Below, piece by piece: positions 16,404 through 62,421 of a DNA stretch of 64,000 nt. Position 1 is the stretch's first letter; the number at the start of each line of letters is the position of its first letter. A program made the position numbers and the translations under genes. Under the pieces are notes generated by a model. The model saw only the letters and a list, made by a program, of their open reading frames with translations, was not told the DNA's origin and made no database searches. The stretch comes from Escherichia coli (GTDB lineage Bacteria > Pseudomonadota > Gammaproteobacteria > Enterobacterales > Enterobacteriaceae). The stretch is from the NCBI RefSeq assembly GCF_050920415.1, contig NZ_CP169309.1. One strand, 5' to 3'.

Positions 16404-16410
16404 TATCTTA

Positions 16411-16440
16411 AGCCCTCTCCCGGTAGGTGAGGGCTTTTAG
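16411..16440 (+). terminator. Rho-independent terminator after ggt
   Basis: Hairpin agccctctcccggtaggtgagggct followed by ttt. Confidence 0.6.
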
Positions 16441-16452
16441 ATTACAAATTCT

Positions 16453-16941
16453 CTATTTCACCCGCGCCATATAATACGCATCGACATATTCGCCATTACG
16501 AAAAGCGTAATTTTTGCCGGTACCTTCTATGAGAAATCCGAATTTTTTATAGACTGCGATTGCCGGGGCGTTATCCGCAAACACCGTCAACTCAATACGA
16601 TCTATCCGTAACCAGTTGTCGCACATTTCAATCAATTCGCGGATCAGGGCGCTGGCGATGCCACGGTTGTGCCAGCGGGAGTCAACACAGATACCAAAAG
16701 TTGCAACATGACTGCGACGTGGGCCTTGATAAGCTTCCACGAAAAGATGACCCACCACGATACTATCAATGCAGGCAACCAGTTGTTTAAATCCCTGGCG
16801 ATCTTTCAATCTTTCTGGCCACCAGCCTTCCGAAGGATGAGGTAGTTGTAGCGTGTTGTAATACACCTCCGGCTGGGCGTGAATTTGCCTGATGGCCTCG
16901 TAATCCCGTGTTTCTGCGTGGCGTATTACTATCTCACTCAT
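16453..16941 (-). CDS. yhhY: GNAT family N-acetyltransferase
   Basis: Internal start MSEIVIRHAETRDYEAIRQIH within ORF 16453..17019; 162 aa; recognised as YhhY. Confidence 0.88.
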   Translation of the reverse strand: MSEIVIRHAETRDYEAIRQIHAQPEVYYNTLQLPHPSEGWWPERLKDRQGFKQLVACIDSIVVGHLFVEAYQGPRRSHVATFGICVDSRWHNRGIASALIRELIEMCDNWLRIDRIELTVFADNAPAIAVYKKFGFLIEGTGKNYAFRNGEYVDAYYMARVK

Positions 16942-17035
16942 TCCTTTGTCCTCTTTGGGGTAAATGTCCCTTTCAACATCATTGACTTTCAAATGCGAGT
17001 CAAATGCATTTTTTTGCAAAAAGTGTTGGACAAGT

Positions 17036-17058
17036 GCGAATGAGAATGATTATTATTG
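17036..17058 (+). promoter_or_regulatory. Fur box overlapping the ryhB promoter
   Basis: gcgaatgagaatgattattattg resembles the Fur consensus gataatgataatcattatc, immediately 5' of ryhB. Confidence 0.6.
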
Positions 17059-17062
17059 TCTC

Positions 17063-17152
17063 GCGATCAGGAAGACCCTCGCGGAGAACCTGAAAGCACG
17101 ACATTGCTCACATTGCTTCCAGTATTACTTAGCCAGCCGGGTGCTGGCTTTT
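17063..17152 (+). ncRNA. ryhB: RyhB small RNA (iron-sparing, Fur-repressed)
   Basis: gcgatcaggaagaccctcgcggagaacctgaaagcacgacattgctcacattgcttccagtattacttagccagccgggtgctggctttt recognised as RyhB, with intrinsic terminator hairpin gccagccgggtgctggc plus T-run; lies between yhhY and yhhX as in E. coli. Confidence 0.92.
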
Positions 17153-17274
17153 TTTTTGATCTTTCGTTTTCAATTTATCCACGGGAAGTGCTTGTGATCG
17201 TTATGCGCACTCCAGTAGGAACCACGTCCGCTTTGCGCTAAGGTGTAAATAATCACCTTAAAAAGGACGAAATC

Positions 17275-18312
17275 ATGGTCATCAACTGCGCCTTTATTGG
17301 CTTCGGCAAAAGCACCACCCGTTACCATCTGCCGTATGTACTTAACCGCAAGGATAGCTGGCATGTCGCGCATATTTTTCGCCGCCATGCGAAGCCGGAA
17401 GAACAGGCCCCCATTTACTCTCATATCCATTTCACCAGCGATCTCGACGAAGTACTAAACGATCCCGATGTTAAGCTGGTTGTTGTCTGCACCCATGCGG
17501 ACAGCCACTTCGAGTACGCGAAGCGCGCGCTGGAGGCTGGGAAAAATGTGCTGGTCGAAAAACCGTTTACTCCGACGCTTGCCCAGGCGAAAGAACTTTT
17601 TGCGCTGGCGAAAAGTAAAGGGCTGACCGTCACGCCGTATCAGAATCGTCGCTTTGATTCCTGTTTTCTGACGGCGAAAAAAGCGATTGAAAGCGGCAAG
17701 CTGGGAGAGATTGTTGAAGTGGAAAGCCATTTTGACTATTACCGCCCAGTGGCAGAAACCAAACCTGGACTGCCGCAGGATGGCGCGTTCTATGGCCTTG
17801 GTGTGCATACGATGGACCAGATTATCTCGCTGTTCGGTCGCCCGGATCACGTCGCTTATGACATCCGCAGCCTGCGTAATAAAGCCAATCCTGACGACAC
17901 CTTTGAAGCGCAGCTATTTTATGGCGATCTAAAAGCCATCGTCAAAACCAGCCATCTGGTGAAAATCGATTATCCGAAATTTATCGTTCATGGGAAGAAA
18001 GGTTCGTTTATTAAATACGGTATCGACCAGCAGGAAACCAGCCTGAAGGCTAACATTATGCCCGGCGAACCGGGATTCGCGGCGGATGATTCGGTCGGTG
18101 TGCTGGAGTATGTCAATGACGAGGGCGTGACGGTCAGAGAAGAGATGAAGCCAGAGATGGGCGATTACGGACGCGTTTATGATGCGTTGTACCAAACCAT
18201 CACCAGCGGGGCGCCAAATTACGTCAAGGAATCTGAAGTTCTTACCAATCTGGAAATCCTTGAACGCGGTTTTGAGCAAGCCTCTCCCTCCACAGTGACT
18301 CTTGCGAAGTAA
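17275..18312 (+). CDS. yhhX: Gfo/Idh/MocA-family NAD(P)-dependent oxidoreductase
   Basis: 345-aa ORF starting MVINCAFIGFGKSTTRYHLPYV, recognised as YhhX. Confidence 0.9.
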   Translation: MVINCAFIGFGKSTTRYHLPYVLNRKDSWHVAHIFRRHAKPEEQAPIYSHIHFTSDLDEVLNDPDVKLVVVCTHADSHFEYAKRALEAGKNVLVEKPFTPTLAQAKELFALAKSKGLTVTPYQNRRFDSCFLTAKKAIESGKLGEIVEVESHFDYYRPVAETKPGLPQDGAFYGLGVHTMDQIISLFGRPDHVAYDIRSLRNKANPDDTFEAQLFYGDLKAIVKTSHLVKIDYPKFIVHGKKGSFIKYGIDQQETSLKANIMPGEPGFAADDSVGVLEYVNDEGVTVREEMKPEMGDYGRVYDALYQTITSGAPNYVKESEVLTNLEILERGFEQASPSTVTLAK

Positions 18313-61982: not shown

Positions 61983-62090
61983 AGGTGCCTACTTGTTTCT
62001 CATTAACTGGATAACTACCTCATGGGGCGTTTGACAGCGACATGAGACCAGATGATTTGCCAACGAAGGAGAGATTAAATAATCAACAAC

Positions 62091-62117
62091 ACAATGATAA
62101 TGAGAATGGTTTCTATC
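62091..62117. promoter_or_regulatory. Fur-box-like sequence in the feoABC promoter region
   Basis: caatgataatgagaatggtttctatc contains tgataatgagaat, resembling the Fur consensus; ~110 bp upstream of feoA. Confidence 0.45.
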
Positions 62118-62311
62118 AGCAATACTTAAAATGTGTGCGAATGTTGGTTTAGATAATAATCTGCGTGAATGTTGATGTGGCTCAAGGTTATATCGCAGCG
62201 AAAATATAATTCGAATGGCGAATTATCAGGGCGGGTTAATGTTTAATTAAGGTTTCATTTGTTAATGAAGTGATAAATATTGACGAAATATAGTGTGAGT
62301 TTGGTTGTGGA

Positions 62312-62345
62312 ATAAAAATGCCGGAGATATTCTCCGGCATTTTTA
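62312..62345 (-). terminator. Rho-independent terminator after tex (symmetric, possibly bidirectional)
   Basis: tgccggagatattctccggca perfect hairpin flanked by A-run on one side and T-run on the other. Confidence 0.7.
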
Positions 62346-62365
62346 TGTCAGGCATGGCGTTCGTT

Positions 62366-62397
62366 GCCAGATGCGGCGTGAACGCCTTATCTGGCAG
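62366..62397. repeat. REP-like element
   Basis: tgccagatgcggcgtgaacgccttatctggca, a REP variant. Confidence 0.55.
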
Positions 62398-62421
62398 GTT
62401 TACGTTTGTCTATCAGGGCGT

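Follow-up and report, generated by a model that had tools for sequence, protein, structure and literature searches.

The ryhB small RNA gene and its Fur operator between yhhY and yhhX in an Escherichia coli chromosome

The locus between yhhY and yhhX

The stretch of DNA analysed here, referred to below as the window, comprises 64,000 nucleotides of an Escherichia coli genome (RefSeq contig NZ_CP169309.1). In the intergenic region between yhhY and yhhX it contains the small RNA gene ryhB, together with a promoter, an overlapping Fur operator and an intrinsic terminator (Table 1). A first-pass annotation, made from the sequence without database searches, had placed a 90-nt RyhB sequence at this position, had described a Fur box overlapping its promoter and a terminator at its end, and had declared two open reading frames (ORFs) covering it to be spurious. 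The interval it gave starts at 17030, which lies inside the -35 hexamer, and ends at 17152, the classical 3' end of the 90-nt RNA, with the K-12 annotation extending to 17157.

Table 1. Features of the ryhB locus and of the region upstream of feoA, in coordinates of the window.
Feature	Position	Strand	Basis
yhhY (GNAT N-acetyltransferase), divergent neighbour; ATG 121 bp from the ryhB start	16453..16941	-	K-12 alignment, Pfam
Mechanical ORF, 77 aa, over ryhB; not a gene	16964..17197	+	ORF list
-35 hexamer TGGACA	17027..17032	+	consensus scan
Second Fur-like 19-mer, 14/19, overlapping the main box with a 6-bp shift	17036..17054	strand-less	consensus match
Main Fur box GAGAATGATTATTATTGTC	17042..17060	strand-less; 16/19 to GATAATGATAATCATTATC on the - strand	consensus scan
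-10 hexamer TATTAT, ending 6 nt before the RNA 5' end (17063)	17051..17056	+	consensus scan, K-12 annotated 5' end
Mechanical ORF, 61 aa, TTG start, over ryhB; not a gene	17056..17241	+	ORF list
ryhB small RNA gene (K-12 feature b4451, 95 nt; classical 90 nt, 17063..17152)	17063..17157	+	K-12 match, Rfam
Invariant core GCACGACATTGCTCACATTGCTTCCAGT, 28 nt, stem-loop 2, region pairing with target mRNAs	17096..17123	+	exact cross-species match
Intrinsic terminator and Hfq-binding 3' module	17131..17157	+	consensus scan, fold
yhhX (GFO/IDH/MocA oxidoreductase), same-strand neighbour	17275..18312	+	K-12 alignment, Pfam
Fur-box-like sequence upstream of feoA (ATG 61982, - strand)	62090..62114	-	consensus match

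Identity of the small RNA gene

The 90-nt ryhB string of K-12 occurs in the window exactly and only once, on the plus strand, so the 90-nt RyhB sequence is borne out. Both checks proposed with the original annotation, a covariance-model search and a comparison with the K-12 gene, were passed, the latter with 100% identity. When the window was scanned with all 4227 Rfam families, RF00057 (RyhB) gave the only gathering-level match (17092..17156, plus strand), scoring 83.1 bits against a gathering score of 55 with E = 3.6e-14. The match spans positions 1-67 of the 67 model positions, is not truncated and contains no flagged non-canonical pairs. Because the model represents only the conserved 3' two-thirds of RyhB, the match begins 29 nt past the RNA 5' end.

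In the curated record of K-12 MG1655, "small regulatory RNA RyhB" (b4451, 95 nt) is placed between yhhX and yhhY. Alignment of the intergenic region 16942..17274 with MG1655 yields 329 identical positions out of 333; three substitutions and a 1-nt indel make up the four differences, every one of them 3' of the ryhB terminator, in the spacer before yhhX. The promoter, Fur operator, RNA and terminator are 100% identical to K-12, and the neighbours are the same, with yhhY divergent and yhhX downstream. The position between yhhY and yhhX is thus confirmed both by alignment with the K-12 record and by a further RefSeq genome, that of strain MFDS1022581, which is 100% identical over the region and shows the gene order ggt, yhhY, yhhX, yhhW, gntR. 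Compared to K-12, the window differs in its yhhY, a rare divergent allele, and in the absence of the yhhZ insertion.

As far as they can be judged from sequence, all defining features of RyhB are present at the locus. We are therefore nearly certain that it is the chromosomal ryhB of E. coli, encoding a Fur-repressed, Hfq-dependent, trans-acting small regulatory RNA, and that the overlapping ORFs are chance frames; no feature of the sequence speaks against this. It is a known gene in a known place with a known operator, and nothing about it is new.

Promoter and Fur operator

The ryhB promoter, in which the two hexamers are separated by an 18-nt spacer and together match the consensus at 10 of 12 positions, is the sole promoter-like site in 16850..17350. 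The main Fur box overlaps the spacer and the -10 hexamer as well as the bases leading up to the RNA start, a placement whose geometry is that of simple repression by occlusion and which would put bound Fur in the way of the polymerase. The second Fur-like copy, shifted by 6 bp, is what would be expected for a Fur operator organised as a hexamer array. The Fur-like string gaatgagaatgattattatt quoted in the first-pass annotation is found at 17038..17057.

Fur boxes have a high AT content and overlap sequence that resembles a -10 hexamer, and a consensus scan alone is no proof of binding; the AT-rich upstream sequence could be a promoter that merely resembles a Fur box, leaving the RNA without Fur control. 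Three lines of evidence make this very improbable. First, the 16/19 match is the only site in the 64 kb with at most three mismatches to the 19-bp consensus, with 0.02 such sites expected from shuffled sequences. Second, the identical K-12 sequence binds Fur: the K-12 ryhB site scores 25.2 bits, is located at -15 and was confirmed by gel shifts, and it had earlier been recovered, under the name "yhhX", by in vivo selection (PMC2189734). According to Chen et al. 2007, the ryhB Fur cluster comprises three overlapping sites, one strong and two weaker (PMC2189734). Third, the box is conserved across species. One exact-match scan of a collection of species-representative genomes with the 28-nt core of the RNA recovered at least 120 stretches of DNA, which belong to the Enterobacterales, Aeromonas and the Vibrionaceae and often come as two per genome. 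Among the matches listed, 116 of the 117 usable instances, from three orders, have a Fur-like box (at most five mismatches) in the 130 nt preceding the core, compared to 2.7% of 130-nt stretches drawn at random from these loci; among these matches the box is present even where the 5' part of RyhB has diverged so far that it is unalignable. The consensus match, the cross-species conservation and the K-12 gel-shift literature hence agree with the original claim of a Fur box overlapping the promoter, and we retain the interpretation of this sequence as a Fur operator.

A second Fur-controlled iron locus in the window, feoABC, had also been proposed. Upstream of feoA, two overlapping 19-mers within 62090..62114 each match GATAATGATAATCATTATC at 13 of 19 positions, a similarity which is equalled, at six mismatches, by 23 other 19-mers of the window when both strands are counted. 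The proximal 160 bp upstream of feoA are identical to K-12 apart from one substitution, and the Fur-like boxes are themselves identical. After the coordinate shift between genome versions is taken into account, these boxes correspond to a cluster of 10.9 and 13.4 bits which Chen et al. 2007 predicted before feoA, citing Fur binding in vivo and noting that no footprint exists (PMC2189734). The part of the proposal that stands is therefore a Fur-like sequence identical to K-12, for which the literature describes binding in vivo; the consensus match, at 13/19, is not distinctive. A feoABC Fur box is thus plausible and consistent with the literature, while sequence statistics alone do not establish it.

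Further away from feoA, the distal part of the yhgF-feoA region (62146..62421, minus strand) differs from K-12 by a 17-nt deletion beside the yhgF end and by scattered substitutions. Two substitutions fall in a distal predicted Fur-like site (about 62146..62163), which reads ATTATTATCTAAACC here and ATTATTATTCAAACC in K-12.

RNA core, fold and terminator

The 28-nt core occurs once in the window even when three mismatches are allowed, with zero occurrences expected by chance, and is invariant in our RyhB alignment (A2). It lies within C28-U68, the region that was taken for RNAhybrid analysis of RyhB target sites (PMC4666370). The predicted fold of the RNA comprises a 5' stem-loop, a central hairpin presenting the core, an A/U-rich linker and the terminator. 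In single-sequence folding, the minimum free energy (MFE) of -24.1 kcal/mol is no better than that of shuffled sequences (z = -0.59), and RNAalifold, applied to 26 Enterobacteriaceae RyhB sequences, predicted 17 pairs, of which none shows a compensatory change because the stems are invariant within the Enterobacteriaceae. Structural support was therefore taken from the Rfam model and from a wider set of terminators.

The claim of an intrinsic terminator proved correct. A 7-bp stem (AGCCAGC/GCTGGCT) with five G-C pairs and the 5-nt loop CGGGT occupies 17131..17149 and is followed by a run of eight T (17150..17157). In the consensus scan this is the sole terminator-like site in 16850..17350, and it is present in both the MFE and the centroid fold. 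Within the set of 117 sequences among the matches listed, the terminator stems vary on both sides with pairing kept (GCCAGC/GCUGGC, GCCCGC/GCGGGC, GCCGGC/GCCGGC, GCCCAC/GUGGGC and GGCCAG/CUGGCC), and the terminator loops vary freely across the species of these matches.

Conservation within E. coli

Of 5426 complete E. coli genomes, 5424 carry the 131-bp stretch from the -35 hexamer to the RNA end, 5413 of them with at least 99% identity. By comparison, the whole 333-bp intergenic region is at least 99% identical in only 258 complete genomes; thus, variation is tolerated past the terminator but not in the promoter and the RNA.

Two copies of RyhB are common in relatives of E. coli, and there is a recombination breakpoint within yhhY, at a distance of about 200 bp. 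On these grounds the stretch might be taken for a defunct remnant, or for a second copy gained by horizontal transfer, instead of the functional chromosomal gene. The window, however, holds a single ryhB copy in the canonical yhhY/yhhX position, the 131-bp stretch lies on the chromosome in all cases, the median being one copy per E. coli genome, and neither promoter, operator, RNA nor terminator carries a mutation relative to K-12. We consider the probability of a remnant or second copy to be practically negligible and continue to treat the locus as the functional chromosomal ryhB.

In the record of strain MFDS1022581, no feature is annotated between yhhY and yhhX. The same holds for the E. 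coli records of the NCBI RefSeq pipeline among the matches listed (H1-H27, e.g. NZ_CP169399.1, 338763..339095), none of which has a feature over ryhB; only curated K-12 has one. As a consequence, scans based on gene calls repeatedly flag the locus as "unannotated".

Conservation across species and related RNAs

E. coli has one RyhB copy, whereas many other Enterobacterales have two. RyhB and RyhB-2 of Klebsiella and the copies of Yersinia, Photorhabdus, Serratia, Pantoea and Pectobacterium share the 28-nt core, the type of terminator and the upstream Fur box with E. coli; for Klebsiella, repression of RyhB by Fur has been shown directly (PMC3423075). Among the matches listed, other Enterobacterales differ in the 5' third of RyhB and in the spacing between Fur box and core, which varies between 50 and 125 nt. 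RyhB of the Vibrionaceae and of Aeromonas has the same core and a Fur-like box upstream. In the Vibrionaceae no terminator directly follows the core, which fits a longer RNA, and in Aeromonas the terminator stem is a different one (GGCCAG/CUGGCC).

Two unlinked RyhB copies are found, among the matches listed, in many genomes of Yersinia, Photorhabdus, Serratia, Pantoea, Pectobacterium, Brenneria and Erwinia. In two Salinivibrio species, tandem RyhB cores lie about 307 nt apart (10919 and 11226 in locus L061; 11696 and 12002 in locus L081), each with a Fur-like box.

PrrF1/2 of Pseudomonas, FsrA of Bacillus, IsrR of Staphylococcus, HrrF of Haemophilus and BrrF of Burkholderia, which were compared through the literature, are functional analogues described there as Fur-repressed, iron-sparing small RNAs; their sequences are unrelated to RyhB and fall outside RF00057.

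The overlapping ORFs

Both ORFs named in the first-pass annotation are indeed in the mechanical ORF list and cover ryhB, with lengths of 61 and 77 aa. Readthrough of the ryhB terminator is documented, being frequent in unstressed cells, with termination enhanced under stress (PMC4509938), so that longer transcripts exist. One of the two frames could therefore be imagined to be a real small-protein gene, which would make the locus protein-coding or its product a dual-function RNA like SgrS/SgrT. The frames themselves argue against this. The 1-nt indel past the terminator alters the C-termini of both ORFs between E. coli strains, such that in K-12 the 77-aa ORF becomes 95 aa long and the 61-aa ORF 53 aa. 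Among the matches listed, the downstream stops of both frames scatter across 115-117 homologues, neither frame behaves differently from a control frame, and a start-to-stop ORF over the core is missing at 35-44 loci (44 of 115 homologues for the frame of 16964..17197); in 36 of 117 homologues, the frame of 17056..17241 closes only 35 nt past the start of the core. Pfam assigns no family to either ORF, whereas the flanking genes match GNAT and GFO/IDH/MocA strongly. Moreover, translation of the 77-aa ORF would have to begin ahead of the ryhB promoter and continue across the Fur box, and the 90-nt RNA contains neither an AUG nor a complete ORF. The small-protein reading is already largely refuted and in our view hardly credible. 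The indel, the lack of frame conservation across species and the absence of a Pfam family uphold the original judgement that both ORFs are spurious, and we regard the locus as an RNA gene.

The neighbouring genes

YhhY is reported to detoxify toxic aminoacyl-nucleotide antibiotics; our literature search on its function returned nothing of use here. The Fur box lies within the control region shared by yhhY and ryhB. Among the matches listed, 48 of 122 RyhB cores have a divergent yhhY homologue whose start lies 143-213 nt upstream of the core, and the families with such yhhY-ryhB pairs are the Enterobacteriaceae, Erwiniaceae and Yersiniaceae, along with the genus Hafnia. In only 24 cases is there a yhhX downstream on the same strand, at variable distance. 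In the window, YhhX is identical to its K-12 counterpart at 344 of 345 aa. From the T run of ryhB to the yhhX ATG extends a spacer of 117 nt (17158..17274), in which the consensus scan detected no consensus sigma-70 promoter. Co-transcription of ryhB and yhhX has been suspected but never shown (PMC4509938). For the divergent ryhB/yhhY spacer, genomic SELEX yielded a peak of a minor-sigma RNA polymerase holoenzyme with an intensity of 6.5 (PMC5493296).

Several observations concern yhhY itself. Annotated yhhY has its start codon, an ATG, at 16941 (162 aa); the mechanical ORF is 26 codons longer (188 aa), beginning with a TTG at 17019, and so reaches into the control region of ryhB. The 3' five-sixths of the allele (16453..16860, minus strand) are 82% identical to K-12 in amino acids and about 77% in nucleotides beyond codon 28, and the first 82 nt of yhhY, the ryhB region and yhhX are K-12-like. 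From the divergent 3' part beside the K-12-like 5' part it follows that a recombination breakpoint lies inside yhhY, approximately 200 bp from the ryhB start. Only 4 of the 5426 complete E. coli genomes match the segment 16380..16870 with at least 99% identity, and only 8 with at least 95%. Among the Escherichia, Citrobacter and Enterobacter loci compared as possible donors of the divergent part, no locus is closer than 79%. The convergent genes ggt and yhhY are 48 bp apart (16404..16452; 49 bp from stop to stop), as in MFDS1022581, whereas K-12 has yhhZ and further DNA there. Since the ggt-yhhY-ryhB adjacency is also found in Citrobacter, Enterobacter, Kluyvera and other loci, the K-12 state with yhhZ looks like an insertion.

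Proposed mechanism and targets

Taken together, the features of Table 1 suggest the following mode of action, which beyond the layout of the locus draws on the identity to K-12 and on established knowledge of RyhB. The sigma-70 promoter (17027..17056) would drive a transcript of about 90 nt from 17063, ending at the intrinsic terminator. The strong Fur operator, with its overlapping 6-bp-shifted copy, covers both the -10 hexamer and the start site. When iron is sufficient, Fe2+-Fur would occupy this operator and block RNA polymerase. When iron is scarce, Fur would leave and RyhB would accumulate, probably stabilised by Hfq on the terminator and the U tail. The RNA would then offer its invariant core, predicted to be single-stranded, and a U-rich 3' tail, and the core would be expected to pair with mRNAs that encode non-essential iron proteins (sodB, sdhCDAB, acnB, fumA, ftnA, bfr and others), at their ribosome-binding regions. 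Pairing would block translation and trigger RNase E-dependent decay of both RNAs, resulting in the "iron-sparing" response, and a few targets, shiA and cirA, would be activated instead. Likewise, induction by iron starvation or fur deletion, Hfq dependence, and repression of sodB and sdh with RNase E are to be expected of a gene whose RNA is 100% identical to K-12 RyhB, given the literature. There, RyhB is described as repressing mRNAs of non-essential iron proteins near their ribosome-binding sites under iron limitation, with the involvement of Hfq and RNase E (PMC4666370). The iron-sparing response so described comprises about 50 target genes, of which two, shiA and cirA, are activated (PMC4666370).

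RNAduplex gives -19.3 kcal/mol for RyhB with K-12 sodB against a null of -11.7 ± 3.0 kcal/mol, a crude measure that does not discriminate real from spurious start regions. An RNAduplex seed scan for local targets, covering 60 long-ORF start regions of the window, was dropped; as spurious antisense ORFs (-26 to -28) outscore the sodB control, such a duplex scan cannot nominate local targets.

Conclusion

In conclusion, the significance of this locus is one of annotation hygiene only: ORF-based tracks miss ryhB and list two chance ORFs over it. The finding itself touches no open biological question. The Fur operator may, however, control more than the small RNA. The divergent yhhY-ryhB pair is kept in several families of the Enterobacterales, and yhhX lies on the same strand as ryhB with no consensus promoter in the spacer, and on this basis YhhY and YhhX might join the iron-starvation response, YhhY by way of the control region that its gene shares with ryhB and YhhX by readthrough of the terminator, as for sgrS-setA. 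This extension is tentative and in our estimate rather unlikely; if it held, both proteins would be unrecognised members of the iron-starvation response of E. coli.
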